DNA from: Naegleria gruberi
Lineage: Eukaryota
Length of the DNA: 64,000 bases
NCBI GenBank assembly: GCA_000004985.1
Contig: GG738865.1
Strand: one strand, 5' to 3'
Shown here: in pieces, positions 45,001 to 64,000 of the stretch
How positions within the stretch are numbered: the stretch's first letter is position 1
Layout: each line of letters opens with the position of its first letter
Made by a program: the position numbers and the translations under genes
The notes under the pieces: generated by a model
Seen by the model: the letters and a program-made list of their open reading frames with translations, nothing else
What the model was told of the DNA's origin: nothing
Database searches by the model: none

Positions 45001-48000
45001 NNNNNNNNNNNNNNNNNNNNNNNNNNNNNNNNNNNNNNNNNNNNNNNNNNNNNNNNNNNNNNNNNNNNNNNNNNNNNNNNNNNNNNNNNNNNNNNNNNNN
45101 NNNNNNNNNNNNNNNNNNNNNNNNNNNNNNNNNNNNNNNNNNNNNNNNNNNNNNNNNNNNNNNNNNNNNNNNNNNNNNNNNNNNNNNNNNNNNNNNNNNN
45201 NNNNNNNNNNNNNNNNNNNNNNNNNNNNNNNNNNNNNNNNNNNNNNNNNNNNNNNNNNNNNNNNNNNNNNNNNNNNNNNNNNNNNNNNNNNNNNNNNNNN
45301 NNNNNNNNNNNNNNNNNNNNNNNNNNNNNNNNNNNNNNNNNNNNNNNNNNNNNNNNNNNNNNNNNNNNNNNNNNNNNNNNNNNNNNNNNNNNNNNNNNNN
45401 NNNNNNNNNNNNNNNNNNNNNNNNNNNNNNNNNNNNNNNNNNNNNNNNNNNNNNNNNNNNNNNNNNNNNNNNNNNNNNNNNNNNNNNNNNNNNNNNNNNN
45501 NNNNNNNNNNNNNNNNNNNNNNNNNNNNNNNNNNNNNNNNNNNNNNNNNNNNNNNNNNNNNNNNNNNNNNNNNNNNNNNNNNNNNNNNNNNNNNNNNNNN
45601 NNNNNNNNNNNNNNNNNNNNNNNNNNNNNNNNNNNNNNNNNNNNNNNNNNNNNNNNNNNNNNNNNNNNNNNNNNNNNNNNNNNNNNNNNNNNNNNNNNNN
45701 NNNNNNNNNNNNNNNNNNNNNNNNNNNNNNNNNNNNNNNNNNNNNNNNNNNNNNNNNNNNNNNNNNNNNNNNNNNNNNNNNNNNNNNNNNNNNNNNNNNN
45801 NNNNNNNNNNNNNNNNNNNNNNNNNNNNNNNNNNNNNNNNNNNNNNNNNNNNNNNNNNNNNNNNNNNNNNNNNNNNNNNNNNNNNNNNNNNNNNNNNNNN
45901 NNNNNNNNNNNNNNNNNNNNNNNNNNNNNNNNNNNNNNNNNNNNNNNNNNNNNNNNNNNNNNNNNNNNNNNNNNNNNNNNNNNNNNNNNNNNNNNNNNNN
46001 NNNNNNNNNNNNNNNNNNNNNNNNNNNNNNNNNNNNNNNNNNNNNNNNNNNNNNNNNNNNNNNNNNNNNNNNNNNNNNNNNNNNNNNNNNNNNNNNNNNN
46101 NNNNNNNNNNNNNNNNNNNNNNNNNNNNNNNNNNNNNNNNNNNNNNNNNNNNNNNNNNNNNNNNNNNNNNNNNNNNNNNNNNNNNNNNNNNNNNNNNNNN
46201 NNNNNNNNNNNNNNNNNNNNNNNNNNNNNNNNNNNNNNNNNNNNNNNNNNNNNNNNNNNNNNNNNNNNNNNNNNNNNNNNNNNNNNNNNNNNNNNNNNNN
46301 NNNNNNNNNNNNNNNNNNNNNNNNNNNNNNNNNNNNNNNNNNNNNNNNNNNNNNNNNNNNNNNNNNNNNNNNNNNNNNNNNNNNNNNNNNNNNNNNNNNN
46401 NNNNNNNNNNNNNNNNNNNNNNNNNNNNNNNNNNNNNNNNNNNNNNNNNNNNNNNNNNNNNNNNNNNNNNNNNNNNNNNNNNNNNNNNNNNNNNNNNNNN
46501 NNNNNNNNNNNNNNNNNNNNNNNNNNNNNNNNNNNNNNNNNNNNNNNNNNNNNNNNNNNNNNNNNNNNNNNNNNNNNNNNNNNNNNNNNNNNNNNNNNNN
46601 NNNNNNNNNNNNNNNNNNNNNNNNNNNNNNNNNNNNNNNNNNNNNNNNNNNNNNNNNNNNNNNNNNNNNNNNNNNNNNNNNNNNNNNNNNNNNNNNNNNN
46701 NNNNNNNNNNNNNNNNNNNNNNNNNNNNNNNNNNNNNNNNNNNNNNNNNNNNNNNNNNNNNNNNNNNNNNNNNNNNNNNNNNNNNNNNNNNNNNNNNNNN
46801 NNNNNNNNNNNNNNNNNNNNNNNNNNNNNNNNNNNNNNNNNNNNNNNNNNNNNNNNNNNNNNNNNNNNNNNNNNNNNNNNNNNNNNNNNNNNNNNNNNNN
46901 NNNNNNNNNNNNNNNNNNNNNNNNNNNNNNNNNNNNNNNNNNNNNNNNNNNNNNNNNNNNNNNNNNNNNNNNNNNNNNNNNNNNNNNNNNNNNNNNNNNN
47001 NNNNNNNNNNNNNNNNNNNNNNNNNNNNNNNNNNNNNNNNNNNNNNNNNNNNNNNNNNNNNNNNNNNNNNNNNNNNNNNNNNNNNNNNNNNNNNNNNNNN
47101 NNNNNNNNNNNNNNNNNNNNNNNNNNNNNNNNNNNNNNNNNNNNNNNNNNNNNNNNNNNNNNNNNNNNNNNNNNNNNNNNNNNNNNNNNNNNNNNNNNNN
47201 NNNNNNNNNNNNNNNNNNNNNNNNNNNNNNNNNNNNNNNNNNNNNNNNNNNNNNNNNNNNNNNNNNNNNNNNNNNNNNNNNNNNNNNNNNNNNNNNNNNN
47301 NNNNNNNNNNNNNNNNNNNNNNNNNNNNNNNNNNNNNNNNNNNNNNNNNNNNNNNNNNNNNNNNNNNNNNNNNNNNNNNNNNNNNNNNNNNNNNNNNNNN
47401 NNNNNNNNNNNNNNNNNNNNNNNNNNNNNNNNNNNNNNNNNNNNNNNNNNNNNNNNNNNNNNNNNNNNNNNNNNNNNNNNNNNNNNNNNNNNNNNNNNNN
47501 NNNNNNNNNNNNNNNNNNNNNNNNNNNNNNNNNNNNNNNNNNNNNNNNNNNNNNNNNNNNNNNNNNNNNNNNNNNNNNNNNNNNNNNNNNNNNNNNNNNN
47601 NNNNNNNNNNNNNNNNNNNNNNNNNNNNNNNNNNNNNNNNNNNNNNNNNNNNNNNNNNNNNNNNNNNNNNNNNNNNNNNNNNNNNNNNNNNNNNNNNNNN
47701 NNNNNNNNNNNNNNNNNNNNNNNNNNNNNNNNNNNNNNNNNNNNNNNNNNNNNNNNNNNNNNNNNNNNNNNNNNNNNNNNNNNNNNNNNNNNNNNNNNNN
47801 NNNNNNNNNNNNNNNNNNNNNNNNNNNNNNNNNNNNNNNNNNNNNNNNNNNNNNNNNNNNNNNNNNNNNNNNNNNNNNNNNNNNNNNNNNNNNNNNNNNN
47901 NNNNNNNNNNNNNNNNNNNNNNNNNNNNNNNNNNNNNNNNNNNNNNNNNNNNNNNNNNNNNNNNNNNNNNNNNNNNNNNNNNNNNNNNNNNNNNNNNNNN

Positions 48001-51000
48001 NNNNNNNNNNNNNNNNNNNNNNNNNNNNNNNNNNNNNNNNNNNNNNNNNNNNNNNNNNNNNNNNNNNNNNNNNNNNNNNNNNNNNNNNNNNNNNNNNNNN
48101 NNNNNNNNNNNNNNNNNNNNNNNNNNNNNNNNNNNNNNNNNNNNNNNNNNNNNNNNNNNNNNNNNNNNNNNNNNNNNNNNNNNNNNNNNNNNNNNNNNNN
48201 NNNNNNNNNNNNNNNNNNNNNNNNNNNNNNNNNNNNNNNNNNNNNNNNNNNNNNNNNNNNNNNNNNNNNNNNNNNNNNNNNNNNNNNNNNNNNNNNNNNN
48301 NNNNNNNNNNNNNNNNNNNNNNNNNNNNNNNNNNNNNNNNNNNNNNNNNNNNNNNNNNNNNNNNNNNNNNNNNNNNNNNNNNNNNNNNNNNNNNNNNNNN
48401 NNNNNNNNNNNNNNNNNNNNNNNNNNNNNNNNNNNNNNNNNNNNNNNNNNNNNNNNNNNNNNNNNNNNNNNNNNNNNNNNNNNNNNNNNNNNNNNNNNNN
48501 NNNNNNNNNNNNNNNNNNNNNNNNNNNNNNNNNNNNNNNNNNNNNNNNNNNNNNNNNNNNNNNNNNNNNNNNNNNNNNNNNNNNNNNNNNNNNNNNNNNN
48601 NNNNNNNNNNNNNNNNNNNNNNNNNNNNNNNNNNNNNNNNNNNNNNNNNNNNNNNNNNNNNNNNNNNNNNNNNNNNNNNNNNNNNNNNNNNNNNNNNNNN
48701 NNNNNNNNNNNNNNNNNNNNNNNNNNNNNNNNNNNNNNNNNNNNNNNNNNNNNNNNNNNNNNNNNNNNNNNNNNNNNNNNNNNNNNNNNNNNNNNNNNNN
48801 NNNNNNNNNNNNNNNNNNNNNNNNNNNNNNNNNNNNNNNNNNNNNNNNNNNNNNNNNNNNNNNNNNNNNNNNNNNNNNNNNNNNNNNNNNNNNNNNNNNN
48901 NNNNNNNNNNNNNNNNNNNNNNNNNNNNNNNNNNNNNNNNNNNNNNNNNNNNNNNNNNNNNNNNNNNNNNNNNNNNNNNNNNNNNNNNNNNNNNNNNNNN
49001 NNNNNNNNNNNNNNNNNNNNNNNNNNNNNNNNNNNNNNNNNNNNNNNNNNNNNNNNNNNNNNNNNNNNNNNNNNNNNNNNNNNNNNNNNNNNNNNNNNNN
49101 NNNNNNNNNNNNNNNNNNNNNNNNNNNNNNNNNNNNNNNNNNNNNNNNNNNNNNNNNNNNNNNNNNNNNNNNNNNNNNNNNNNNNNNNNNNNNNNNNNNN
49201 NNNNNNNNNNNNNNNNNNNNNNNNNNNNNNNNNNNNNNNNNNNNNNNNNNNNNNNNNNNNNNNNNNNNNNNNNNNNNNNNNNNNNNNNNNNNNNNNNNNN
49301 NNNNNNNNNNNNNNNNNNNNNNNNNNNNNNNNNNNNNNNNNNNNNNNNNNNNNNNNNNNNNNNNNNNNNNNNNNNNNNNNNNNNNNNNNNNNNNNNNNNN
49401 NNNNNNNNNNNNNNNNNNNNNNNNNNNNNNNNNNNNNNNNNNNNNNNNNNNNNNNNNNNNNNNNNNNNNNNNNNNNNNNNNNNNNNNNNNNNNNNNNNNN
49501 NNNNNNNNNNNNNNNNNNNNNNNNNNNNNNNNNNNNNNNNNNNNNNNNNNNNNNNNNNNNNNNNNNNNNNNNNNNNNNNNNNNNNNNNNNNNNNNNNNNN
49601 NNNNNNNNNNNNNNNNNNNNNNNNNNNNNNNNNNNNNNNNNNNNNNNNNNNNNNNNNNNNNNNNNNNNNNNNNNNNNNNNNNNNNNNNNNNNNNNNNNNN
49701 NNNNNNNNNNNNNNNNNNNNNNNNNNNNNNNNNNNNNNNNNNNNNNNNNNNNNNNNNNNNNNNNNNNNNNNNNNNNNNNNNNNNNNNNNNNNNNNNNNNN
49801 NNNNNNNNNNNNNNNNNNNNNNNNNNNNNNNNNNNNNNNNNNNNNNNNNNNNNNNNNNNNNNNNNNNNNNNNNNNNNNNNNNNNNNNNNNNNNNNNNNNN
49901 NNNNNNNNNNNNNNNNNNNNNNNNNNNNNNNNNNNNNNNNNNNNNNNNNNNNNNNNNNNNNNNNNNNNNNNNNNNNNNNNNNNNNNNNNNNNNNNNNNNN
50001 NNNNNNNNNNNNNNNNNNNNNNNNNNNNNNNNNNNNNNNNNNNNNNNNNNNNNNNNNNNNNNNNNNNNNNNNNNNNNNNNNNNNNNNNNNNNNNNNNNNN
50101 NNNNNNNNNNNNNNNNNNNNNNNNNNNNNNNNNNNNNNNNNNNNNNNNNNNNNNNNNNNNNNNNNNNNNNNNNNNNNNNNNNNNNNNNNNNNNNNNNNNN
50201 NNNNNNNNNNNNNNNNNNNNNNNNNNNNNNNNNNNNNNNNNNNNNNNNNNNNNNNNNNNNNNNNNNNNNNNNNNNNNNNNNNNNNNNNNNNNNNNNNNNN
50301 NNNNNNNNNNNNNNNNNNNNNNNNNNNNNNNNNNNNNNNNNNNNNNNNNNNNNNNNNNNNNNNNNNNNNNNNNNNNNNNNNNNNNNNNNNNNNNNNNNNN
50401 NNNNNNNNNNNNNNNNNNNNNNNNNNNNNNNNNNNNNNNNNNNNNNNNNNNNNNNNNNNNNNNNNNNNNNNNNNNNNNNNNNNNNNNNNNNNNNNNNNNN
50501 NNNNNNNNNNNNNNNNNNNNNNNNNNNNNNNNNNNNNNNNNNNNNNNNNNNNNNNNNNNNNNNNNNNNNNNNNNNNNNNNNNNNNNNNNNNNNNNNNNNN
50601 NNNNNNNNNNNNNNNNNNNNNNNNNNNNNNNNNNNNNNNNNNNNNNNNNNNNNNNNNNNNNNNNNNNNNNNNNNNNNNNNNNNNNNNNNNNNNNNNNNNN
50701 NNNNNNNNNNNNNNNNNNNNNNNNNNNNNNNNNNNNNNNNNNNNNNNNNNNNNNNNNNNNNNNNNNNNNNNNNNNNNNNNNNNNNNNNNNNNNNNNNNNN
50801 NNNNNNNNNNNNNNNNNNNNNNNNNNNNNNNNNNNNNNNNNNNNNNNNNNNNNNNNNNNNNNNNNNNNNNNNNNNNNNNNNNNNNNNNNNNNNNNNNNNN
50901 NNNNNNNNNNNNNNNNNNNNNNNNNNNNNNNNNNNNNNNNNNNNNNNNNNNNNNNNNNNNNNNNNNNNNNNNNNNNNNNNNNNNNNNNNNNNNNNNNNNN

Positions 51001-54000
51001 NNNNNNNNNNNNNNNNNNNNNNNNNNNNNNNNNNNNNNNNNNNNNNNNNNNNNNNNNNNNNNNNNNNNNNNNNNNNNNNNNNNNNNNNNNNNNNNNNNNN
51101 NNNNNNNNNNNNNNNNNNNNNNNNNNNNNNNNNNNNNNNNNNNNNNNNNNNNNNNNNNNNNNNNNNNNNNNNNNNNNNNNNNNNNNNNNNNNNNNNNNNN
51201 NNNNNNNNNNNNNNNNNNNNNNNNNNNNNNNNNNNNNNNNNNNNNNNNNNNNNNNNNNNNNNNNNNNNNNNNNNNNNNNNNNNNNNNNNNNNNNNNNNNN
51301 NNNNNNNNNNNNNNNNNNNNNNNNNNNNNNNNNNNNNNNNNNNNNNNNNNNNNNNNNNNNNNNNNNNNNNNNNNNNNNNNNNNNNNNNNNNNNNNNNNNN
51401 NNNNNNNNNNNNNNNNNNNNNNNNNNNNNNNNNNNNNNNNNNNNNNNNNNNNNNNNNNNNNNNNNNNNNNNNNNNNNNNNNNNNNNNNNNNNNNNNNNNN
51501 NNNNNNNNNNNNNNNNNNNNNNNNNNNNNNNNNNNNNNNNNNNNNNNNNNNNNNNNNNNNNNNNNNNNNNNNNNNNNNNNNNNNNNNNNNNNNNNNNNNN
51601 NNNNNNNNNNNNNNNNNNNNNNNNNNNNNNNNNNNNNNNNNNNNNNNNNNNNNNNNNNNNNNNNNNNNNNNNNNNNNNNNNNNNNNNNNNNNNNNNNNNN
51701 NNNNNNNNNNNNNNNNNNNNNNNNNNNNNNNNNNNNNNNNNNNNNNNNNNNNNNNNNNNNNNNNNNNNNNNNNNNNNNNNNNNNNNNNNNNNNNNNNNNN
51801 NNNNNNNNNNNNNNNNNNNNNNNNNNNNNNNNNNNNNNNNNNNNNNNNNNNNNNNNNNNNNNNNNNNNNNNNNNNNNNNNNNNNNNNNNNNNNNNNNNNN
51901 NNNNNNNNNNNNNNNNNNNNNNNNNNNNNNNNNNNNNNNNNNNNNNNNNNNNNNNNNNNNNNNNNNNNNNNNNNNNNNNNNNNNNNNNNNNNNNNNNNNN
52001 NNNNNNNNNNNNNNNNNNNNNNNNNNNNNNNNNNNNNNNNNNNNNNNNNNNNNNNNNNNNNNNNNNNNNNNNNNNNNNNNNNNNNNNNNNNNNNNNNNNN
52101 NNNNNNNNNNNNNNNNNNNNNNNNNNNNNNNNNNNNNNNNNNNNNNNNNNNNNNNNNNNNNNNNNNNNNNNNNNNNNNNNNNNNNNNNNNNNNNNNNNNN
52201 NNNNNNNNNNNNNNNNNNNNNNNNNNNNNNNNNNNNNNNNNNNNNNNNNNNNNNNNNNNNNNNNNNNNNNNNNNNNNNNNNNNNNNNNNNNNNNNNNNNN
52301 NNNNNNNNNNNNNNNNNNNNNNNNNNNNNNNNNNNNNNNNNNNNNNNNNNNNNNNNNNNNNNNNNNNNNNNNNNNNNNNNNNNNNNNNNNNNNNNNNNNN
52401 NNNNNNNNNNNNNNNNNNNNNNNNNNNNNNNNNNNNNNNNNNNNNNNNNNNNNNNNNNNNNNNNNNNNNNNNNNNNNNNNNNNNNNNNNNNNNNNNNNNN
52501 NNNNNNNNNNNNNNNNNNNNNNNNNNNNNNNNNNNNNNNNNNNNNNNNNNNNNNNNNNNNNNNNNNNNNNNNNNNNNNNNNNNNNNNNNNNNNNNNNNNN
52601 NNNNNNNNNNNNNNNNNNNNNNNNNNNNNNNNNNNNNNNNNNNNNNNNNNNNNNNNNNNNNNNNNNNNNNNNNNNNNNNNNNNNNNNNNNNNNNNNNNNN
52701 NNNNNNNNNNNNNNNNNNNNNNNNNNNNNNNNNNNNNNNNNNNNNNNNNNNNNNNNNNNNNNNNNNNNNNNNNNNNNNNNNNNNNNNNNNNNNNNNNNNN
52801 NNNNNNNNNNNNNNNNNNNNNNNNNNNNNNNNNNNNNNNNNNNNNNNNNNNNNNNNNNNNNNNNNNNNNNNNNNNNNNNNNNNNNNNNNNNNNNNNNNNN
52901 NNNNNNNNNNNNNNNNNNNNNNNNNNNNNNNNNNNNNNNNNNNNNNNNNNNNNNNNNNNNNNNNNNNNNNNNNNNNNNNNNNNNNNNNNNNNNNNNNNNN
53001 NNNNNNNNNNNNNNNNNNNNNNNNNNNNNNNNNNNNNNNNNNNNNNNNNNNNNNNNNNNNNNNNNNNNNNNNNNNNNNNNNNNNNNNNNNNNNNNNNNNN
53101 NNNNNNNNNNNNNNNNNNNNNNNNNNNNNNNNNNNNNNNNNNNNNNNNNNNNNNNNNNNNNNNNNNNNNNNNNNNNNNNNNNNNNNNNNNNNNNNNNNNN
53201 NNNNNNNNNNNNNNNNNNNNNNNNNNNNNNNNNNNNNNNNNNNNNNNNNNNNNNNNNNNNNNNNNNNNNNNNNNNNNNNNNNNNNNNNNNNNNNNNNNNN
53301 NNNNNNNNNNNNNNNNNNNNNNNNNNNNNNNNNNNNNNNNNNNNNNNNNNNNNNNNNNNNNNNNNNNNNNNNNNNNNNNNNNNNNNNNNNNNNNNNNNNN
53401 NNNNNNNNNNNNNNNNNNNNNNNNNNNNNNNNNNNNNNNNNNNNNNNNNNNNNNNNNNNNNNNNNNNNNNNNNNNNNNNNNNNNNNNNNNNNNNNNNNNN
53501 NNNNNNNNNNNNNNNNNNNNNNNNNNNNNNNNNNNNNNNNNNNNNNNNNNNNNNNNNNNNNNNNNNNNNNNNNNNNNNNNNNNNNNNNNNNNNNNNNNNN
53601 NNNNNNNNNNNNNNNNNNNNNNNNNNNNNNNNNNNNNNNNNNNNNNNNNNNNNNNNNNNNNNNNNNNNNNNNNNNNNNNNNNNNNNNNNNNNNNNNNNNN
53701 NNNNNNNNNNNNNNNNNNNNNNNNNNNNNNNNNNNNNNNNNNNNNNNNNNNNNNNNNNNNNNNNNNNNNNNNNNNNNNNNNNNNNNNNNNNNNNNNNNNN
53801 NNNNNNNNNNNNNNNNNNNNNNNNNNNNNNNNNNNNNNNNNNNNNNNNNNNNNNNNNNNNNNNNNNNNNNNNNNNNNNNNNNNNNNNNNNNNNNNNNNNN
53901 NNNNNNNNNNNNNNNNNNNNNNNNNNNNNNNNNNNNNNNNNNNNNNNNNNNNNNNNNNNNNNNNNNNNNNNNNNNNNNNNNNNNNNNNNNNNNNNNNNNN

Positions 54001-57000
54001 NNNNNNNNNNNNNNNNNNNNNNNNNNNNNNNNNNNNNNNNNNNNNNNNNNNNNNNNNNNNNNNNNNNNNNNNNNNNNNNNNNNNNNNNNNNNNNNNNNNN
54101 NNNNNNNNNNNNNNNNNNNNNNNNNNNNNNNNNNNNNNNNNNNNNNNNNNNNNNNNNNNNNNNNNNNNNNNNNNNNNNNNNNNNNNNNNNNNNNNNNNNN
54201 NNNNNNNNNNNNNNNNNNNNNNNNNNNNNNNNNNNNNNNNNNNNNNNNNNNNNNNNNNNNNNNNNNNNNNNNNNNNNNNNNNNNNNNNNNNNNNNNNNNN
54301 NNNNNNNNNNNNNNNNNNNNNNNNNNNNNNNNNNNNNNNNNNNNNNNNNNNNNNNNNNNNNNNNNNNNNNNNNNNNNNNNNNNNNNNNNNNNNNNNNNNN
54401 NNNNNNNNNNNNNNNNNNNNNNNNNNNNNNNNNNNNNNNNNNNNNNNNNNNNNNNNNNNNNNNNNNNNNNNNNNNNNNNNNNNNNNNNNNNNNNNNNNNN
54501 NNNNNNNNNNNNNNNNNNNNNNNNNNNNNNNNNNNNNNNNNNNNNNNNNNNNNNNNNNNNNNNNNNNNNNNNNNNNNNNNNNNNNNNNNNNNNNNNNNNN
54601 NNNNNNNNNNNNNNNNNNNNNNNNNNNNNNNNNNNNNNNNNNNNNNNNNNNNNNNNNNNNNNNNNNNNNNNNNNNNNNNNNNNNNNNNNNNNNNNNNNNN
54701 NNNNNNNNNNNNNNNNNNNNNNNNNNNNNNNNNNNNNNNNNNNNNNNNNNNNNNNNNNNNNNNNNNNNNNNNNNNNNNNNNNNNNNNNNNNNNNNNNNNN
54801 NNNNNNNNNNNNNNNNNNNNNNNNNNNNNNNNNNNNNNNNNNNNNNNNNNNNNNNNNNNNNNNNNNNNNNNNNNNNNNNNNNNNNNNNNNNNNNNNNNNN
54901 NNNNNNNNNNNNNNNNNNNNNNNNNNNNNNNNNNNNNNNNNNNNNNNNNNNNNNNNNNNNNNNNNNNNNNNNNNNNNNNNNNNNNNNNNNNNNNNNNNNN
55001 NNNNNNNNNNNNNNNNNNNNNNNNNNNNNNNNNNNNNNNNNNNNNNNNNNNNNNNNNNNNNNNNNNNNNNNNNNNNNNNNNNNNNNNNNNNNNNNNNNNN
55101 NNNNNNNNNNNNNNNNNNNNNNNNNNNNNNNNNNNNNNNNNNNNNNNNNNNNNNNNNNNNNNNNNNNNNNNNNNNNNNNNNNNNNNNNNNNNNNNNNNNN
55201 NNNNNNNNNNNNNNNNNNNNNNNNNNNNNNNNNNNNNNNNNNNNNNNNNNNNNNNNNNNNNNNNNNNNNNNNNNNNNNNNNNNNNNNNNNNNNNNNNNNN
55301 NNNNNNNNNNNNNNNNNNNNNNNNNNNNNNNNNNNNNNNNNNNNNNNNNNNNNNNNNNNNNNNNNNNNNNNNNNNNNNNNNNNNNNNNNNNNNNNNNNNN
55401 NNNNNNNNNNNNNNNNNNNNNNNNNNNNNNNNNNNNNNNNNNNNNNNNNNNNNNNNNNNNNNNNNNNNNNNNNNNNNNNNNNNNNNNNNNNNNNNNNNNN
55501 NNNNNNNNNNNNNNNNNNNNNNNNNNNNNNNNNNNNNNNNNNNNNNNNNNNNNNNNNNNNNNNNNNNNNNNNNNNNNNNNNNNNNNNNNNNNNNNNNNNN
55601 NNNNNNNNNNNNNNNNNNNNNNNNNNNNNNNNNNNNNNNNNNNNNNNNNNNNNNNNNNNNNNNNNNNNNNNNNNNNNNNNNNNNNNNNNNNNNNNNNNNN
55701 NNNNNNNNNNNNNNNNNNNNNNNNNNNNNNNNNNNNNNNNNNNNNNNNNNNNNNNNNNNNNNNNNNNNNNNNNNNNNNNNNNNNNNNNNNNNNNNNNNNN
55801 NNNNNNNNNNNNNNNNNNNNNNNNNNNNNNNNNNNNNNNNNNNNNNNNNNNNNNNNNNNNNNNNNNNNNNNNNNNNNNNNNNNNNNNNNNNNNNNNNNNN
55901 NNNNNNNNNNNNNNNNNNNNNNNNNNNNNNNNNNNNNNNNNNNNNNNNNNNNNNNNNNNNNNNNNNNNNNNNNNNNNNNNNNNNNNNNNNNNNNNNNNNN
56001 NNNNNNNNNNNNNNNNNNNNNNNNNNNNNNNNNNNNNNNNNNNNNNNNNNNNNNNNNNNNNNNNNNNNNNNNNNNNNNNNNNNNNNNNNNNNNNNNNNNN
56101 NNNNNNNNNNNNNNNNNNNNNNNNNNNNNNNNNNNNNNNNNNNNNNNNNNNNNNNNNNNNNNNNNNNNNNNNNNNNNNNNNNNNNNNNNNNNNNNNNNNN
56201 NNNNNNNNNNNNNNNNNNNNNNNNNNNNNNNNNNNNNNNNNNNNNNNNNNNNNNNNNNNNNNNNNNNNNNNNNNNNNNNNNNNNNNNNNNNNNNNNNNNN
56301 NNNNNNNNNNNNNNNNNNNNNNNNNNNNNNNNNNNNNNNNNNNNNNNNNNNNNNNNNNNNNNNNNNNNNNNNNNNNNNNNNNNNNNNNNNNNNNNNNNNN
56401 NNNNNNNNNNNNNNNNNNNNNNNNNNNNNNNNNNNNNNNNNNNNNNNNNNNNNNNNNNNNNNNNNNNNNNNNNNNNNNNNNNNNNNNNNNNNNNNNNNNN
56501 NNNNNNNNNNNNNNNNNNNNNNNNNNNNNNNNNNNNNNNNNNNNNNNNNNNNNNNNNNNNNNNNNNNNNNNNNNNNNNNNNNNNNNNNNNNNNNNNNNNN
56601 NNNNNNNNNNNNNNNNNNNNNNNNNNNNNNNNNNNNNNNNNNNNNNNNNNNNNNNNNNNNNNNNNNNNNNNNNNNNNNNNNNNNNNNNNNNNNNNNNNNN
56701 NNNNNNNNNNNNNNNNNNNNNNNNNNNNNNNNNNNNNNNNNNNNNNNNNNNNNNNNNNNNNNNNNNNNNNNNNNNNNNNNNNNNNNNNNNNNNNNNNNNN
56801 NNNNNNNNNNNNNNNNNNNNNNNNNNNNNNNNNNNNNNNNNNNNNNNNNNNNNNNNNNNNNNNNNNNNNNNNNNNNNNNNNNNNNNNNNNNNNNNNNNNN
56901 NNNNNNNNNNNNNNNNNNNNNNNNNNNNNNNNNNNNNNNNNNNNNNNNNNNNNNNNNNNNNNNNNNNNNNNNNNNNNNNNNNNNNNNNNNNNNNNNNNNN

Positions 57001-60000
57001 NNNNNNNNNNNNNNNNNNNNNNNNNNNNNNNNNNNNNNNNNNNNNNNNNNNNNNNNNNNNNNNNNNNNNNNNNNNNNNNNNNNNNNNNNNNNNNNNNNNN
57101 NNNNNNNNNNNNNNNNNNNNNNNNNNNNNNNNNNNNNNNNNNNNNNNNNNNNNNNNNNNNNNNNNNNNNNNNNNNNNNNNNNNNNNNNNNNNNNNNNNNN
57201 NNNNNNNNNNNNNNNNNNNNNNNNNNNNNNNNNNNNNNNNNNNNNNNNNNNNNNNNNNNNNNNNNNNNNNNNNNNNNNNNNNNNNNNNNNNNNNNNNNNN
57301 NNNNNNNNNNNNNNNNNNNNNNNNNNNNNNNNNNNNNNNNNNNNNNNNNNNNNNNNNNNNNNNNNNNNNNNNNNNNNNNNNNNNNNNNNNNNNNNNNNNN
57401 NNNNNNNNNNNNNNNNNNNNNNNNNNNNNNNNNNNNNNNNNNNNNNNNNNNNNNNNNNNNNNNNNNNNNNNNNNNNNNNNNNNNNNNNNNNNNNNNNNNN
57501 NNNNNNNNNNNNNNNNNNNNNNNNNNNNNNNNNNNNNNNNNNNNNNNNNNNNNNNNNNNNNNNNNNNNNNNNNNNNNNNNNNNNNNNNNNNNNNNNNNNN
57601 NNNNNNNNNNNNNNNNNNNNNNNNNNNNNNNNNNNNNNNNNNNNNNNNNNNNNNNNNNNNNNNNNNNNNNNNNNNNNNNNNNNNNNNNNNNNNNNNNNNN
57701 NNNNNNNNNNNNNNNNNNNNNNNNNNNNNNNNNNNNNNNNNNNNNNNNNNNNNNNNNNNNNNNNNNNNNNNNNNNNNNNNNNNNNNNNNNNNNNNNNNNN
57801 NNNNNNNNNNNNNNNNNNNNNNNNNNNNNNNNNNNNNNNNNNNNNNNNNNNNNNNNNNNNNNNNNNNNNNNNNNNNNNNNNNNNNNNNNNNNNNNNNNNN
57901 NNNNNNNNNNNNNNNNNNNNNNNNNNNNNNNNNNNNNNNNNNNNNNNNNNNNNNNNNNNNNNNNNNNNNNNNNNNNNNNNNNNNNNNNNNNNNNNNNNNN
58001 NNNNNNNNNNNNNNNNNNNNNNNNNNNNNNNNNNNNNNNNNNNNNNNNNNNNNNNNNNNNNNNNNNNNNNNNNNNNNNNNNNNNNNNNNNNNNNNNNNNN
58101 NNNNNNNNNNNNNNNNNNNNNNNNNNNNNNNNNNNNNNNNNNNNNNNNNNNNNNNNNNNNNNNNNNNNNNNNNNNNNNNNNNNNNNNNNNNNNNNNNNNN
58201 NNNNNNNNNNNNNNNNNNNNNNNNNNNNNNNNNNNNNNNNNNNNNNNNNNNNNNNNNNNNNNNNNNNNNNNNNNNNNNNNNNNNNNNNNNNNNNNNNNNN
58301 NNNNNNNNNNNNNNNNNNNNNNNNNNNNNNNNNNNNNNNNNNNNNNNNNNNNNNNNNNNNNNNNNNNNNNNNNNNNNNNNNNNNNNNNNNNNNNNNNNNN
58401 NNNNNNNNNNNNNNNNNNNNNNNNNNNNNNNNNNNNNNNNNNNNNNNNNNNNNNNNNNNNNNNNNNNNNNNNNNNNNNNNNNNNNNNNNNNNNNNNNNNN
58501 NNNNNNNNNNNNNNNNNNNNNNNNNNNNNNNNNNNNNNNNNNNNNNNNNNNNNNNNNNNNNNNNNNNNNNNNNNNNNNNNNNNNNNNNNNNNNNNNNNNN
58601 NNNNNNNNNNNNNNNNNNNNNNNNNNNNNNNNNNNNNNNNNNNNNNNNNNNNNNNNNNNNNNNNNNNNNNNNNNNNNNNNNNNNNNNNNNNNNNNNNNNN
58701 NNNNNNNNNNNNNNNNNNNNNNNNNNNNNNNNNNNNNNNNNNNNNNNNNNNNNNNNNNNNNNNNNNNNNNNNNNNNNNNNNNNNNNNNNNNNNNNNNNNN
58801 NNNNNNNNNNNNNNNNNNNNNNNNNNNNNNNNNNNNNNNNNNNNNNNNNNNNNNNNNNNNNNNNNNNNNNNNNNNNNNNNNNNNNNNNNNNNNNNNNNNN
58901 NNNNNNNNNNNNNNNNNNNNNNNNNNNNNNNNNNNNNNNNNNNNNNNNNNNNNNNNNNNNNNNNNNNNNNNNNNNNNNNNNNNNNNNNNNNNNNNNNNNN
59001 NNNNNNNNNNNNNNNNNNNNNNNNNNNNNNNNNNNNNNNNNNNNNNNNNNNNNNNNNNNNNNNNNNNNNNNNNNNNNNNNNNNNNNNNNNNNNNNNNNNN
59101 NNNNNNNNNNNNNNNNNNNNNNNNNNNNNNNNNNNNNNNNNNNNNNNNNNNNNNNNNNNNNNNNNNNNNNNNNNNNNNNNNNNNNNNNNNNNNNNNNNNN
59201 NNNNNNNNNNNNNNNNNNNNNNNNNNNNNNNNNNNNNNNNNNNNNNNNNNNNNNNNNNNNNNNNNNNNNNNNNNNNNNNNNNNNNNNNNNNNNNNNNNNN
59301 NNNNNNNNNNNNNNNNNNNNNNNNNNNNNNNNNNNNNNNNNNNNNNNNNNNNNNNNNNNNNNNNNNNNNNNNNNNNNNNNNNNNNNNNNNNNNNNNNNNN
59401 NNNNNNNNNNNNNNNNNNNNNNNNNNNNNNNNNNNNNNNNNNNNNNNNNNNNNNNNNNNNNNNNNNNNNNNNNNNNNNNNNNNNNNNNNNNNNNNNNNNN
59501 NNNNNNNNNNNNNNNNNNNNNNNNNNNNNNNNNNNNNNNNNNNNNNNNNNNNNNNNNNNNNNNNNNNNNNNNNNNNNNNNNNNNNNNNNNNNNNNNNNNN
59601 NNNNNNNNNNNNNNNNNNNNNNNNNNNNNNNNNNNNNNNNNNNNNNNNNNNNNNNNNNNNNNNNNNNNNNNNNNNNNNNNNNNNNNNNNNNNNNNNNNNN
59701 NNNNNNNNNNNNNNNNNNNNNNNNNNNNNNNNNNNNNNNNNNNNNNNNNNNNNNNNNNNNNNNNNNNNNNNNNNNNNNNNNNNNNNNNNNNNNNNNNNNN
59801 NNNNNNNNNNNNNNNNNNNNNNNNNNNNNNNNNNNNNNNNNNNNNNNNNNNNNNNNNNNNNNNNNNNNNNNNNNNNNNNNNNNNNNNNNNNNNNNNNNNN
59901 NNNNNNNNNNNNNNNNNNNNNNNNNNNNNNNNNNNNNNNNNNNNNNNNNNNNNNNNNNNNNNNNNNNNNNNNNNNNNNNNNNNNNNNNNNNNNNNNNNNN

Positions 60001-60218
60001 NNNNNNNNNNNNNNNNNNNNNNNNNNNNNNNNNNNNNNNNNNNNNNNNNNNNNNNNNNNNNNNNNNNNNNNNNNNNNNNNNNNNNNNNNNNNNNNNNNNN
60101 NNNNNNNNNNNNNNNNNNNNNNNNNNNNNNNNNNNNNNNNNNNNNNNNNNNNNNNNNNNNNNNNNNNNNNNNNNNNNNNNNNNNNNNNNNNNNNNNNNNN
60201 NNNNNNNNNNNNNNNNNN
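1..60218. other. Unresolved sequence (run of N): assembly gap or hard-masked region
   Basis: Every base from 1 to 60218 is 'n'. The first called base is 60219. No annotation is possible in this span. Confidence 0.99.
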
Positions 60219-60219
60219 A

Positions 60220-61798
60220 TCAATTATACTATTTATTATCGCAATGATCATTAGTAATCACCATCATCAGTATGTAAATTGTGAATCATCATCATCATCT
60301 GTAACATCTACATCTTCATCAAATGATTCACAACAACAACAACAATATTTAGAAGAATTTAATATATTAAAAACATTAGATTCTAAAAATACAATTTTTC
60401 ATTATAAATTTACAATGAATAACATGACAAGTATGAATAATATTCAATATTTAACAAATAAATATAATTTAAATGAATTAAAATTAACATTTACAAGAGG
60501 AAGATATAATTATAAAGATTGGGGAATTTATGATAAAATTTCACCAAATGGTTTAACTTTACAAGTTAATTTTAAAAATATTCAAAATTTCCAAATATGG
60601 GATAATTTAGTAAATGAATTAAGTGGAATATTTTGTGCAAGTATTAATTTTTTAACTCAATATGAACAACGTAGAGTTTATAATAGTGGTATTGTAAATT
60701 ATTTAAATAATAATACTATATATGGTACTTTAAGTGAAGAAACAATTTGTACTGAAAATTTAACTCCTTTTAAATCAATTTTACCTTTTAGAGGTAATAT
60801 GGGATTAAGTTATTTATTAAATCCTAAATTTTTATTTAATAGTTTATATTTTAGTATGGATATTACTATTAATAGTAATAATAATATTATTTTAAATTTT
60901 TATAAAATTTCTAAAATTAATCAAGAAGATTTTAAATTTATTTTAAATAAGAAATTTAAATTAATTATTCCATATGGTAAAATAATTATAAATGATTATA
61001 TTAATCAATTAAATAATTTAAATGAATTAAAATCTAATTTTACTATTTATAATAATTATATTGAAAATAAAAAAATTAAAAAATCAACTATTTTAATTAA
61101 AAGATATCAATTAAATAATAAATTAATTACAGATTTAGAAATATTAAATAATAATATAAATGAAATTTGTTATTATGATGTAATACCATGGTATTTTAAA
61201 TCATTTATTCATACCTTAAAAGTAAATGATATTTCAATTCAAAATTTAAATTATTTAAATTTTATTAAAATTTTACCTCAAAAAGATAGAACAAATCCTT
61301 TAATTTTAAATTTATGTTTTAATTATTTAAAATTTATTAAAAATAATAATTTAAATAATACTATTACTAATAAATAATAATAATAATATTAAAATTAGTA
61401 TTGAATTTGAAAAGACATATTTAAAATATACAGAACATGCACCTGATGCCAATAGAGGTTTTGATTTAAGTAGTGCAATTATTACCACTAGAATTAATTC
61501 TAATATTAATTCTAATAATGAAATAATAGATTACAATGATTACAATGATTACAATGATAATAATGAACAAATATTATATAGTGATAGTTTATTAATTAGT
61601 TTACCTACACCTGATTTTAGTATGCCATATAATGTTATTACATTAACATGTACAATTATTGTTTTATTCTTTGGATCAATGTTTAATTTATTAATTAGAA
61701 GATTTAATTCACGTTATGAATCCGATCAATCAAAATCTTTATTAGAACGTTTAATTTCTTTTATTAGTAAGATTTTTAAAAAGAATAAACAAGATTAA
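60220..61798 (+). CDS. pigT: GPI transamidase component PIG-T/Gpi16 orthologue. It is 5'-partial because it runs into the N gap. The frame is interrupted by a 1-nt indel in an (AAT)n run: segment A is 60220-61377 in frame 1, segment B is 61355-61798 in the +1 frame, and the stop is TAA at 61796-61798.
   Basis: Seen in sequence: the ORF at 60244-61377 stays open upstream to 60220, the first readable codon after the gap. There it encodes SIILFIIAMIIS, the hydrophobic core of a signal peptide, so the true start lies inside the gap. The translation carries motifs I recognise from human PIG-T: LSGIFCAS(I/L)NF; (V/I)CTENLTP(W/F)K..LP...GLS.LL, including the conserved Cys that I recall as Cys182 of human PIG-T, the partner of the PIG-K disulfide; and (V/I)PWY(L/F)..(Y/F)(V/I)HTL. 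Downstream, the +1 frame at 61355-61798 encodes NNNNNIKISIEFEKTYLKYTEHAPDANRGF...[43 protein letters not shown]...KNKQD*. This matches the human C-terminus ..[24 protein letters not shown]...[38 protein letters not shown], including the single C-terminal transmembrane helix. The two frames overlap across 61355-61377. Deleting one A from 'aaa' at 61372-61374 joins them as ...TITNNNNNNIKISIEFEK. Confidence 0.85.
60286..60345 (+). repeat. Low-complexity coding repeats near the PIG-T N-terminus: a (TCA)n Ser run at 60286-60300 and a (CAA)5 Gln run at 60331-60345
   Basis: Direct reading: 'tcatcatcatcatct' and 'caacaacaacaacaa'. They encode SSSSS and QQQQQ within the insert ...NHHHQYVNCESSSSSVTSTSSSNDSQQQQQYLEEF that sits between the signal peptide and the conserved domain. 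Confidence 0.8.
61369..61387 (+). repeat. (AAT)n trinucleotide microsatellite, imperfect ('aataaataataataataat'), containing the apparent frameshift within pigT
   Basis: Direct reading: aat aaa taa taa taa taa t. It would be a perfect (aat)6-7 run if one A were removed. It would encode poly-Asn in the restored frame. Confidence 0.8.
61529..61564 (+). repeat. In-frame 9-bp tandem repeat (gattacaat) x3 plus a degenerate fourth unit (gataataat). It encodes DYNDYNDYNDNN in the PIG-T lumenal tail.
   Basis: Direct reading of 'gattacaatgattacaatgattacaatgataataat', in the frame of pigT segment B. Confidence 0.8.
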
Positions 61799-62012
61799 AT
61801 TTTATAAAATTTCAATGTATATATTTATAGTATTTAAAAATAATACAAGAATACAAGAATAACATATACCTAGTAGTAATGGTAATGGTAGTAAGAAATA
61901 TAAAGCCTTTACCACAAAATGTGCGAGAAGCCAATGTTGGTTTGTGTTGGTTGGAGGGAAAATGATATTGTACTTTTTGGCGCCAAATTTAAATTCAACC
62001 ACTACAAAAAAA
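61799..62012 (+). promoter_or_regulatory. Intergenic spacer of about 215 bp. It must hold both the pigT 3'UTR/polyadenylation region and the IFT140 promoter and 5'UTR. There is an A-run at 62005-62012 immediately before the ATG.
   Basis: The spacer lies between the pigT stop (61796-61798) and the IFT140 ATG (62013). It is very AT-rich apart from a comparatively GC-richer block at about 61915-61990 (aatgtgcgagaagccaatgttggtttgtgttggttggagggaaaatg...ggcgccaaa). Short direct repeats are present: 'tacaagaatacaagaat' and 'taatggtaatggta'. The A-run-then-ATG start context ('acaaaaaaaatg') is typical of AT-rich eukaryotes. I cannot map any specific motif. Confidence 0.3.
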
Positions 62013-62456
62013 ATGTCTTCTACACTTCCACCTTCTGCCAGTTCTTCATCTTTATACAATATTGGATTAGTCACTGGAACATTTGGAAATAGTGTAATAT
62101 ATGAAAATTTTACATTACAAGGAACAACCAATAACAAGTTCCATTCTCCTGTTTGTAGTCAGTGGCATCGTAAATATCCACTATTGGCTATTTCTAAGGC
62201 TAATGGTGTAGTTTCAGTGTATGACGATCACGGAGAAAAAAACGAAAGAGTTAATTTATCTAGATCATCTAATTGTACAGCTATCGGGTGGCATCCTACA
62301 AAATTTATTCTTTGTACAGGTTGGAAAGATGGTGCCATTCTTTTATACAATGATAAAGACCCTCATAATCAAAAGGAAATTGAATTGGAAGAACATGGTA
62401 AAATTTGTGCTATTAAATGGTCTCCTGATGGTGAGAGATTAATAACTGCTCATCAA
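62013..62456 (+). CDS. IFT140: IFT140-like intraflagellar transport protein (IFT-A complex WD40/TPR subunit), exon 1 of 148 codons. An alternative in-frame ATG at 61962 cannot be excluded.
   Basis: The translation is MSSTLPPSASSSSLYNIGLVTGTFGNSVIYENF...FHSPVCSQWHRKYPLLAISKANGVVSVYDDHGE...CTAIGWHPTKFILCTGWKDGAILLYNDKDPHNQ...ICAIKWSPDGERLITAHQ. These are WD repeats whose spacing and residues match what I recall of the human IFT140 N-terminus (..FISWHPVHPFLAVAY.., ..[31 protein letters not shown].., ..ITVLRWSPSGNCLLSGD..). The exon ends with a complete codon, CAA (Q), immediately before 'gtaagt'. The track's listed ORF start at 61944 is a GTG, not an ATG. Confidence 0.75.
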
Positions 62457-62542
62457 GTAAGTTGTTTCTTCTTCCTCAATAATAATAATTCTAATCGTTT
62501 CTTTAATACAAAAATATGAACAATTATTCTTAATAATAATAG
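62457..62542 (+). other. Spliceosomal intron, 86 bp, GT-AG, phase 0, within the IFT140-like gene
   Basis: The 5' end is 'gtaagt' at 62457-62462. The 3' end is 'ttcttaataataatag' with AG at 62541-62542. The intron is extremely AT-rich. Reading through it gives TGA at 62517-62519, which is exactly where the track's 191-aa ORF ends. Downstream frame is closed by TAG at 62540-62542 and opens at 62543. Joining the exons gives ...LITAHQ|DGNIGIWKFEGG, a canonical WD-repeat continuation. Confidence 0.8.
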
Positions 62543-64000
62543 GATGGTAATATTGGTATTTGGAAATTTGAAGGAGGAAAACTCAAACACATTTTGAACT
62601 ATGAAAATCCTGGAAATGTTGTGGAAACACCAGAACAAATTGTATTTAAAACTAATAGAGATCCATCAACAGAATTGTCTTGGATTTTCTTTGTTGGTGT
62701 TTCTACAGGACAAGGTTCTAAAATTGTTGTAGGTGTTGCCGATGATTTGGCAGAAAATTTACAAAAATCACAAAATGGTACTGTTAGATATGAATCACTT
62801 AATGATACTGGTATTCAATTTAATGGATCTCAAATTATGAGTGTATTATTCCATAGAGAAAAATCTCAATTAGTTTTATTGACAGATACAGCTTTATTAG
62901 TTGTTTATAAAATCAATGCTTCGATTAGTAAGCCTAATGAAATTGGAATGAAACAAGTAATGAGAACTAAAATTAGTATTTCTAATAGTACAGGTGCAAC
63001 AATTAAAACATTATGGGTTGGATCAGGTGTTATTGCAACCATTACAAGTAATGAGAGTATGGTAAGAGTTTGGAATTTAGAAACAGATGAAAATACAACA
63101 CTCATGTTGAACTCTCCTCTAGAACATGAAGTTGTCATTTCATTTTCATTCAATCCTCAAAAGAGAGCCATTGTTGCTGGTACAAGTACAGGTAGATTAG
63201 TATTTTGGGTTTTTACTGGTAATCAAAAGACAAGAGATCAATGGGAAAAGTATGGAGAATATTCTTTACCAAGTAGAGCTTCTGTTAATATGGTTAGTTG
63301 GGGATGTGGTGAAAAGGTTTTATGTTATGGTAGTGGAGAGAATAATGATATTGAAATTTTACAAGAAACAAGTTTCAAGAAGAGAATGAAGAATAATACC
63401 ATTGCCATTCAAAATTCTTTAAACACAGTAGTAATTGGAAAACCAAACTTTGCACCAGGAGAAGATAAAATTCCACCAAGAACAATCAAAACAGGTATTA
63501 ATATTAGAGATTTTGATCATACAGATACTCATATCATTGTTTCAAATAATAGCGTTTTAGAATTATTTGAAACTAGAGGTACAGAATTAATTAGAAAAGC
63601 AGAAGCATTTGAAATTCCATCAATTTGTGTTGGTTTACACTCTGAAAGTATCTTTGTTCCAACTAATGGATCAGTTAATTCTAATCCAAGAATTGAAGTA
63701 TACAGTTTCAAAGGTATTAAGAAACAAACTTTACAATTAAGTGAAGAAGAAGGAGTTCCAATTTGTATTGATGTCCAAAGTGATTTTATTACAATTGCAA
63801 CAAATACTAATCATGTTAGAATGTGGCATGTTTTGGGAAGAGAAGCAAAACCAGTTTCAGTTTCAAAGAGAGTTTTTGATAATAATGAATCAGATTCATC
63901 TGAAAAGACTTATATTTCAAGTGTAAAATGTAATTGTAATGGTACAATGTTAGCTTTACTTGGTAAATTGAAGAATGAAGGTGAAATGGATTTACTTACA
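62543..64000 (+). CDS. IFT140: IFT140-like protein, exon 2. It is 3'-partial: 486 codons are open to the end of the window and the CDS continues beyond it.
   Basis: The frame is open from 62543 to 64000 with no stop codon. The translation is DGNIGIWKFEGGKLKHILNYENPGNVVETPEQIVFKTNRDPSTELSWIFFVGVSTGQGSKIVVGVADDLAENLQKSQNGTVRYESLNDTGIQFNGSQIMSVLFHREKSQLVLLTDTALLVVYKINASISKPNEIGMKQVMRTKISISNSTGATIKTLWVGSGVIATITSNESMVRVWNLETDENTTL...SFNPQKRAIVAGTSTGRLVFWVFTGNQ... These blocks align with human IFT140 as I recall it: [48 protein letters not shown]..., ...[29 protein letters not shown], ...[24 protein letters not shown]. All overlapping ORFs in the track (62453-62638 minus, 62905-63153 minus, 63529-63711 minus, 63741-63926 plus) fall in other frames of this exon. 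Confidence 0.8.

Follow-up and report, generated by a model that had tools for sequence, protein, structure and literature searches.

The 5' part of an IFT140 gene in AT-rich DNA of probable Naegleria-lineage origin

The window analyzed here, a stretch of 64,000 nucleotides, carries sequence letters only over its last 3,782 bases (positions 60219 to 64000), and these hold the 3' part of a Gpi16/PIG-T gene followed in tandem by the beginning of an IFT140 gene (Table 1). The 214 bp that separate them bear out the tight gene spacing noted in the original prediction. The gene model for IFT140 has two exons and covers the 5' 40 % of the gene; when joined, the exons give 634 codons free of stops, in agreement with the earlier proposal of two coding segments interrupted by a short, AT-rich GT-AG intron. 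That intron (GTAAGT...AATAG) has a GC content of 20 %, the unspliced frame meets a stop inside it, and the N terminus of the spliced product aligns with the annotated start of Naegleria lovaniensis IFT140. Because a random frame at the local composition would be expected to contain roughly 8 % stop codons, by our estimate, 634 open codons lie far beyond chance (about 1e-22, also an estimate). The gene continues past the end of the window, beyond which lie about 870 codons, including those for the TPR solenoid; since the N-terminal 634 residues are the part visible, a full-length, intact IFT140 is what we infer. The standard genetic code is in use, as had been claimed: no TAA or TAG occurs in frame over the 634 codons, 20 of which specify Gln, and TAA serves as the stop of the upstream gene. 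The accompanying statement that Gln is always encoded by CAA was not quite accurate, as there are 19 CAA codons and a single CAG (62160 to 62162). On the same evidence, a ciliate with a reassigned code was rejected as the source; readthrough of the TAA of Gpi16 would, moreover, collide with IFT140.

Table 1. Features of the window, with coordinates counted from its first nucleotide
Feature	Coordinates	Strand	Basis or remark
Run of N (gap, padding or masking)	1..60218	none	Carries no sequence information
Gpi16/PIG-T (GPI transamidase subunit T), 5' end cut by the N-run, stop TAA at 61796-61798	60219..61798	+	PF04113
(AAT)n tract with one extra A (within AAA 61372-61374), causing a +1 shift in Gpi16 and a TAA at 61375-61377	61369..61387	+	Three-frame translation
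Intergenic region, 214 bp, 27 % GC, presumed IFT140 promoter and 5' UTR	61799..62012	+	
Palindromic E2F-consensus-like element TTTGGCGCCAAA, 26-37 nt upstream of the IFT140 ATG	61976..61987	none	Motif match
IFT140 exon 1, codons 1-148, in which the first beta-propeller begins	62013..62456	+	Profile and orthologue alignment
Intron, 86 nt, phase 0, GTAAGTTGT...AATAG, between HQ and DG	62457..62542	+	Position conserved in Naegleria
IFT140 exon 2, codons 149-634, completing the first propeller and spanning most of the second	62543..64000	+	

The upstream gene was assigned through the Pfam model PF04113 (141.7 bits). It is very AT rich, with a GC content of 17 %, and contains poly-Ser, poly-Gln, and poly-Asn tracts; the homopolymeric protein inserts described in the original prediction are thus real but are located in Gpi16. 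Alignment with five heterolobosean orthologues revealed conservation over its whole length, including the C-terminal motifs PDANRGFD and PTPDFSMPYNVIT and a transmembrane anchor, and the closest named relatives are those of N. fowleri, N. lovaniensis, and Willaertia magna (E values of 1e-94 to 1e-115). The reading frame is broken once by an additional A, probably an indel introduced during assembly or sequencing and less likely a real frameshift; because Gpi16 is an essential housekeeping gene, one base too many within an (AAT)n run looks like a fault of assembly and not like decay. An intron was considered as the cause of the break and discarded: both GT..AG candidates that restore the frame (61222 to 61414 and 61316 to 61433) remove residues conserved in the five orthologues, and the N. 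lovaniensis gene is intronless. A scan of positions 60219 to 64000 against Rfam gave only a below-threshold match to SNORD69 (25.9 bits, cut-off 37; E = 0.13), which lies on the opposite strand inside the Gpi16 coding sequence and was treated as chance.

The IFT-A complex counts IFT140 among its core subunits. With two beta-propellers at its N terminus and a TPR solenoid at its C terminus, the protein contributes to the coat-like polymer that IFT-A makes in intraflagellar transport trains, which bring cargo back from the flagellar tip and import membrane proteins. By homology, the fragment is an IFT140 orthologue, as originally predicted. The Pfam models of the first and second IFT140 propellers (PF23383 and PF23385) reach 179 and 103.5 bits (cut-off, 27), and the best four PDB matches are all IFT140 (Tetrahymena, 1e-43; Chlamydomonas, 7e-40; two human entries, 4e-33); the first other match, the generic WD40 protein ATG16L1 (2e-13), trails by about 20 orders of magnitude. 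The tandem N-terminal propellers of these solved structures (8hme for Tetrahymena, 8bda for Chlamydomonas, and 8bbf and 8fgw for the human protein) align over about 550 residues, but at an identity of only about 25 to 30 %, and function is assigned through orthology; the TPR part of the gene falls outside the window. The full-length N. lovaniensis orthologue displays the complete IFT140 architecture, with two propellers and matches to PF24762 (568 bits) and PF24760 (104 bits), and orthology with the annotated IFT140 genes is also positional, in that the intron and the linkage to Gpi16 are common, with order and orientation differing. An exhaustive HMMER search with exon 2 alone as the query gave W. 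magna IFT140 as the closest representative (8.9e-174); beyond the Heterolobosea, the next named relative was that of the euglenid Keelungia, consistent with an origin in Discoba. An indexed protein search with the 634-residue product returned mostly bacterial WD40 proteins and overlooked the known Naegleria and Willaertia IFT140 orthologues, the top match being a 36 % identical relative from Logan run SRR15686337, and a metagenome scan for relatives returned nothing. Two open reading frames of the window, looked up as exact sequences, likewise matched no record.

Over 626 residues, the product is 78.6 % identical to N. lovaniensis IFT140 and 78 to 79 % identical to that of N. fowleri. Its identity to the W. 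magna protein (57.2 %) equals that between N. lovaniensis and W. magna (57.1 %), and the fragment is therefore grouped with Naegleria; this placement nearer to Naegleria than to Willaertia comes from one gene, IFT140, as Gpi16, at 45 to 49 % identity to all of them, is uninformative. Both Naegleria genes are likewise interrupted by an intron at the same codon and in the same phase, 68 nt long in N. lovaniensis and 86 nt long in N. fowleri. The N. lovaniensis gene (1504 amino acids; GCA_003324165.2, PYSW02000037.1) resembles the fragment in its start, the position of its single intron, its GTAAGTTGT donor, and its linkage to Gpi16, and the N. fowleri gene (1504 amino acids; GCA_008403515.1, VFQX01000006.1) does so in its start, the position of its single intron, and the same linkage. 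In both of these species, however, Gpi16 and IFT140 point away from each other on either side of a UCH gene, whereas here they are adjacent and in tandem. The W. magna orthologue (KAL9643912.1, ABK040_013321, 1482 amino acids) shares the AT codon bias of the fragment but is much more divergent as a protein, is annotated as intronless (4449 nt, corresponding to 1482 codons and a stop), and lies about 60 kb from Gpi16. We consider it very probable that the DNA comes from an amoeboflagellate of the Heterolobosea that belongs to the Naegleria lineage; once Willaertia had split off, it would share a branch with N. fowleri and N. lovaniensis while standing outside that pair.

At 24.8 %, the GC content of positions 60219 to 64000 lies below the range of 33 to 37 % found in the Naegleria genomes published so far (PMC12482156). 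The GC content at third codon positions is 15 % in IFT140 and about 4 % in Gpi16, compared with 15 % and 3 % in W. magna and about 35 % in N. lovaniensis and N. fowleri, a comparison that covers two genes only and a property that does not define a genus. Such low values point to an unusually AT-rich Naegleria, to an AT-rich region, or to an unsampled sister lineage, and the genome in question may belong to the Naegleria lineage and yet lie about 10 GC points under any published for the genus. That a protein resembling those of Naegleria is encoded with a codon bias resembling that of Willaertia suggests either that composition is strongly heterogeneous or that an AT-rich lineage of Naegleria has gone unsampled. 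The DNA also resembles that of Dictyostelium discoideum, with its very low GC content, its preference for TTA, AAT, CAA, and AGA codons, its poly-Asn, poly-Gln, and poly-Ser tracts, its short AT-rich GT-AG introns, and its compact spacing; this resemblance is compositional only, and to our knowledge dictyostelids lack IFT genes. The main consequence of the analysis is the correction of a taxonomic misattribution, from a Dictyostelium-like composition to a heterolobosean source.

Naegleria is a classic model of de novo basal-body and flagellum assembly, and the IFT complement of N. gruberi was reportedly described by Fritz-Laylin et al. in 2010; IFT140 is already annotated in Naegleria genomes, so that as a gene finding the present one carries little weight. 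Published accounts present these organisms as amoeboflagellates in which transcription is induced as flagella are assembled de novo (PMC4819266, PMC6125883, PMC12183034), and IFT140 is to be expected in them because they build basal bodies and flagella in this way. Growing amoebae are without cilia, stress leads to the transcription of basal-body and flagellar genes and to the formation of two flagella within about an hour, and IFT140 would be needed at the flagellate stage. The IFT-A function of the product and its induction during differentiation are likely on the strength of family knowledge and the literature; the gene model, the orthology, the placement among the Heterolobosea, the shared intron, and the linkage of the two genes were read from the sequences compared. 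The original view that the DNA came from a flagellated, AT-rich organism other than a dictyostelid has thus held, the nearest relatives being amoeboflagellates of the genus Naegleria (PMC6125883, PMC4819266), and since these relatives build flagella, the scenario of a remarkable retention of IFT140 in a nonciliated organism does not apply.

Several other readings of the locus deserve consideration. That the gene encodes a different WD40/TPR coat-like scaffold, such as a COPI, VPS, or nucleoporin component or one of IFT122, WDR19, and WDR35, might be entertained because its N-terminal WD40 repeats match many generic WD40 models, but these matches fall under the curated cut-offs with the exception of ANAPC4_WD40 (50.0 against 22.9 bits) and the WD40 repeat (33.4 against 27 bits), and the best matches are to IFT140. 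The paralogue profiles are far weaker than those of IFT140: WDR19 (WDR19_1st), at 58.8 bits, exceeds its cut-off of 27 yet is three-fold under IFT140, and WDR35, at 38.2 bits, is short of its cut-off of 80. The IFT122 profile is absent among the best 25 Pfam matches listed, none of the IFT-A paralogue chains of the same PDB entries occurs among the best 60 PDB matches, and the syntenic orthologue has the IFT140-specific C-terminal TPR part, all of which makes such a scaffold vanishingly improbable. The anaerobic gut fungi (Neocallimastigomycota) and flagellated amoebozoans that had been put forward as candidate sources share with this DNA a likeness that is compositional only, residing in very low GC content, Asn-rich proteins, short AT-rich introns, and tight spacing. 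Against them stand the Gpi16 matches, which are best in the Heterolobosea (1e-115 for Naegleria, about 1e-63 for the best fungal protein, and about 1e-47 for Dictyostelium), the 78 to 79 % identity of IFT140 to Naegleria, the conserved intron and common linkage, and the relationship to Keelungia described above, and an origin of this kind can be regarded as effectively refuted.

An unsampled, very AT-rich genus resembling Willaertia and sister to Naegleria, in which IFT140 would still be functional, is a closer competitor, in keeping with third-position GC contents that match those of W. magna and no Naegleria examined, with a Gpi16 protein whose identity to those of Naegleria, of Willaertia, and of an environmental relative is about the same (45 to 49 %), and with a local gene order found in neither Naegleria genome. 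The identity of IFT140 to the N. lovaniensis protein, set against a distance from W. magna that is the Naegleria-Willaertia distance itself, together with an intron that is common to Naegleria and absent from the annotated W. magna gene, nevertheless renders a separate genus improbable. Even less credence can be given to the idea that IFT140 is a decaying relic in a species of the Naegleria lineage that no longer forms flagellates. Transformation has been reported for "some species" of Naegleria and not for all (PMC9928731), the neighboring Gpi16 has a frameshift, and just 40 % of IFT140 is visible; however, 634 codons have stayed open despite the expected density of stops, amino acid identity to functional orthologues is 78 % under an extreme synonymous AT bias, the start and the splice site are intact, the promoter element is conserved, and the break in Gpi16, for the reasons given above, looks like an error of assembly. 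A relic is on this evidence highly improbable, and a functional IFT140 in an organism of the Naegleria lineage is the reading that we prefer.

The presumed promoter contains a box, TTTGGCGCCAAA, that fits TTTSGCGCSAAA, which we take to be the E2F/DP consensus. IFT140 is preceded by a related GGCGSS box in N. lovaniensis, N. fowleri, and W. magna as well, so that each of the four heteroloboseans examined has such a site; the motif, which was defined post hoc, occurs in 4/4 IFT140 promoters and in 1/28 other promoters. The elements of the four genes lie 26 to 58 nt from the ATG in AT-rich DNA that is otherwise unalignable. The box described here is a perfect palindrome, whereas TTCCCGCC or TTCCCCGCC is found in the genes of N. 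lovaniensis and N. fowleri, the elements of which read GGCGGGAA and GGCGGGGAA; W. magna has TTTGGCGGGAAA 34 to 37 nt upstream of its ATG. With a regulon in mind, a second ciliary gene was sought in the compared loci, where two unannotated WD40 neighbors proved to be DCAF8-like and generic, and a homology search with the sole other motif-bearing gene (W. magna, 497 amino acids) found nothing. E2F, DP, and pRb are present in Excavata generally (PMC4862756), and in animals E2F4/5 acts with multicilin in centriole amplification (PMC4083089). That the box is a conserved E2F-type element upstream of heterolobosean IFT140 genes, possibly belonging to a flagellar-gene regulon, is a tentative proposal drawn from motif comparison, with a small chance of being correct. 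Naegleria has none of RFX, FOXJ1, and XAP5, and the regulators of its cilia genes are described as unknown (PMC12183034). As a candidate, the element nonetheless offers a concrete lead on how such genes are controlled where these three factors are missing.

Readable sequence in the window is confined to 3,782 bases (60219-64000; 24.8% GC) carrying two genes on the plus strand, Gpi16/PIG-T and, 214 bp downstream, the 5' part of IFT140. The spliced IFT140 frame comprises 634 codons with no stops, and the unspliced frame ends within the intron. The first legible stretch of Gpi16, SIILFIIAMII, resembles a signal peptide. An Rfam match to SNORD69 lies within the Gpi16 coding sequence on the opposite, minus strand (60278-60334); it scores 25.9 bits where the gathering threshold is 37 (E = 0.13) and is most likely due to chance.

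Coordinates of the window's features and of the boxes upstream of IFT140 in related loci
Feature	Position	Strand	Details
N run	1-60218		60,218 bases, 5' of readable sequence; cuts off Gpi16 5' end; may be scaffold gap, padding, or masking
Gpi16 gene	60219-61798	+	Pfam PF04113, 141.7 bits; 5' end lost to N run
E2F-like box, window	61976-61987		TTTGGCGCCAAA; 26-37 nt upstream of IFT140 ATG
IFT140 exon 1	62013-62456	+	ATG at 62013
IFT140 intron	between 62456 and 62543	+	86 nt; GTAAGTTGT...AATAG; 20% GC
IFT140 exon 2	62543-64000	+	runs to window end
IFT140 box, W. magna	L006 2962-2975		TTTGGCGGGAAA; -34 to -37
IFT140 box, N. lovaniensis	L004 about 7481-7488	gene on -	GGCGGGAA; -54
IFT140 box, N. 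fowleri	L008 about 4225-4235		GGCGGGGAA; about -55

The original prediction, that the second gene is an orthologue of IFT140, is borne out by three kinds of search. Both IFT140-specific propeller models of Pfam match the window product (179 and 103.5 bits; cut-off, 27). Matches to the WDR19 and WDR35 models, which represent paralogues within IFT-A, are far weaker (58.8 and 38.2 bits), and generic WD40 models, with the exceptions of ANAPC4_WD40 and WD40-repeat, fall below their curated cut-offs. In a search of all PDB chains, the best four matches were IFT140 from solved IFT-A complexes (Tetrahymena 8hme, 1e-43; Chlamydomonas 8bda, 7e-40; human 8fgw/8bbf, 4e-33; approximately 550 residues aligned in each), followed at 2e-13 by a generic WD40 protein. 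When exon 2 was compared exhaustively by HMMER with 1.84 billion representatives, one match stood out, the annotated Willaertia magna protein KAL9643912.1 (8.9e-174; 59% identity). Because the best matches in Pfam, PDB, and HMMER were all IFT140, a non-IFT WD40/TPR scaffold is not the closest family and, judged by these comparisons, the assignment is correct and the observation real. The full-length N. lovaniensis orthologue has the complete IFT140 architecture, with two propellers, an IF140/IFT172 TPR domain (568 bits), and an IF140 C-terminal TPR domain (104 bits), and the 3' part of the gene beyond the window end is expected to encode the same TPR domains. The closest relative in an indexed search was a 662-amino-acid IFT140-like protein, 36% identical to that of the window and encoded by an intron-less, transcript-like contig of Logan run SRR15686337 (2,035 nt; 30% GC); its reading frame stops at a TAA where orthologues go on (VPNFYF* versus VPNLFFVKND), 14 nt from the contig end.

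Gpi16 belongs to a much less crowded family than WD40 and for this reason served as the probe for taxonomic placement, its protein being used after frame correction. The frame breaks (+1) at 61372-61377, and an (AAT)n tract spans 61369-61387; an extra A (61372-61374) in this run turns ...TNNNNNNIKISIEFEK... into a TAA stop at 61375-61377, and past the break the coding sequence goes on in the +1 frame (IEFEKTYLKYTEHAPDANRGFD...). Both flanks align to conserved residues of five heterolobosean orthologues, and an intron was rejected as the cause, as the only frame-restoring GT..AG candidates would remove conserved residues; on the simplest reading, the break is probably an assembly or sequencing indel.

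The best named matches of the corrected protein were all heterolobosean (Naegleria fowleri, 6e-115; N. lovaniensis, 1e-114; W. magna, 7e-94; Acrasis kona, 1e-63), with matches outside Heterolobosea beginning at approximately 1e-63 in fungi and at approximately 1e-47 in Dictyostelium. The N. lovaniensis locus around Gpi16 carries, two genes off, a gene for a 1,504-amino-acid IFT140, to which the window product showed 79.3% (exon 1) and 78.4% (exon 2) identity by tblastn, with the segments split precisely at the proposed splice junction (residue 148/149); the intron in N. lovaniensis (68 nt, phase 0) lies at the same codon boundary (HQ|DG) and starts with the same bases as that of the window, and N. 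fowleri IFT140, 78 to 79% identical, has an 86-nt intron at this site. IFT140 identities were 78.6% between the window and N. lovaniensis, 57.2% between the window and W. magna, and 57.1% between N. lovaniensis and W. magna, and the window therefore sides with Naegleria to the exclusion of the sister genus Willaertia. N. fowleri and N. lovaniensis themselves are ruled out as the source, their Gpi16 proteins being 83% identical to each other and approximately 45% identical to that of the window. The reasoning from an IFT140 gene and the standard code to a flagellated source, neither dictyostelid nor ciliate, was sound, but the lineages named as candidates, anaerobic gut fungi and a flagellated amoebozoan, are excluded. 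The standard code holds, with no in-frame TAA or TAG and with Gpi16 ending in TAA; glutamine, said always to be encoded by CAA, is encoded by 19 CAA and 1 CAG. The resemblance to Dictyostelium is compositional convergence.

Composition and IFT140 protein identity point in opposite directions. GC at third codon positions (GC3) in IFT140 is 15% in the window, 15% in W. magna, and about 35% in N. lovaniensis and N. fowleri; for Gpi16, the respective values are 4%, 3%, and about 35%. The codon bias of the window genes is thus that of W. magna, whereas the identity of the IFT140 protein favors N. lovaniensis and N. fowleri. A uS7 gene whose product is identical to the N. gruberi NEG-M protein (L007) has a GC3 of 48%, similar to the other Naegleria species (45%) and unlike W. 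magna (19%), and published Naegleria genomes are 33 to 37% GC (PMC12482156). Given this mismatch and the published range, three sources come into consideration: the two genes may belong to a gruberi-group Naegleria, either as part of an AT-rich region or as a weakly expressed pair, or they may come from an unsampled, more AT-rich Naegleria lineage; an unsampled sister lineage of Naegleria, which would suit the codon bias but sits less well with the IFT140 identities, is less likely.

Linkage of Gpi16 and IFT140 is kept across the species compared, and the local order is rearranged. In N. fowleri (L008 1-8884) and N. lovaniensis (L004 2845-11749), the order is Gpi16(-), UCH(+), IFT140(+), F5/8C(-), uS7(+); the window has IFT140(+) immediately after Gpi16(+), without UCH; and in W. 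magna (L005 and L006), UCH adjoins Gpi16, with IFT140, F5/8C, and uS7 approximately 60 kb off on the same contig.

N. gruberi is a long-standing model of de novo flagellum assembly. Naegleria species are amoeboflagellates whose growing amoebae are without centrioles or cilia; under stress, basal-body and flagellar genes are transcribed and two flagella are built de novo in about an hour (PMC4819266, PMC6125883, PMC12183034). An IFT-A core subunit is therefore to be expected there, and with IFT140 already annotated in N. fowleri, N. lovaniensis, and W. magna, the window gene is of a known kind in an organism where it belongs. By analogy with its family, its product would join IFT122, IFT144, IFT121, IFT139, and IFT43 in IFT-A, a coat-like complex that polymerizes on intraflagellar transport trains and is required both for retrograde transport and for bringing membrane proteins into the cilium. 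Its propellers, readable in the window, would be the part making lateral IFT-A polymer contacts in the matched PDB structures.

The only mildly novel thread is an E2F-like promoter element, which in the window perfectly matches the E2F consensus palindrome. All four heteroloboseans have such a box 26 to 58 nt upstream of the start codon of IFT140, in AT-rich DNA that does not otherwise align. Counting GGCGSS cores no more than 100 nt from the ATG gave 4/4 for IFT140 promoters and 1/28 for other promoters of the same loci (Fisher p = 1.4e-4, for a motif set after it had been seen and with two of the four species, N. fowleri and N. lovaniensis, close relatives); shuffles yield the core with a probability of 0.0015 to 0.019 per region. 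The compared loci offered no second ciliary gene for a regulon test. The box gains some interest because Naegleria is without RFX, FOXJ1, and XAP5, its cilia-gene regulators being stated as unknown (PMC12183034), because E2F/DP/pRb is ancestral to eukaryotes and occurs in excavates (PMC4862756), and because E2F4/5 acts with multicilin in animal centriole amplification (PMC4083089). Even so, it seems unlikely that the conserved element marks a mechanism of flagellar-gene control. Among the compared loci, the sole non-IFT140 promoter with the same palindromic box, TTGGCGCCAA, belongs to a W. magna gene (L005 7226-8719, minus strand) whose 497-amino-acid product gave no Pfam or PDB match and is rich in Asn, Leu, and Ile; the box lies approximately 36 nt upstream of its ATG.
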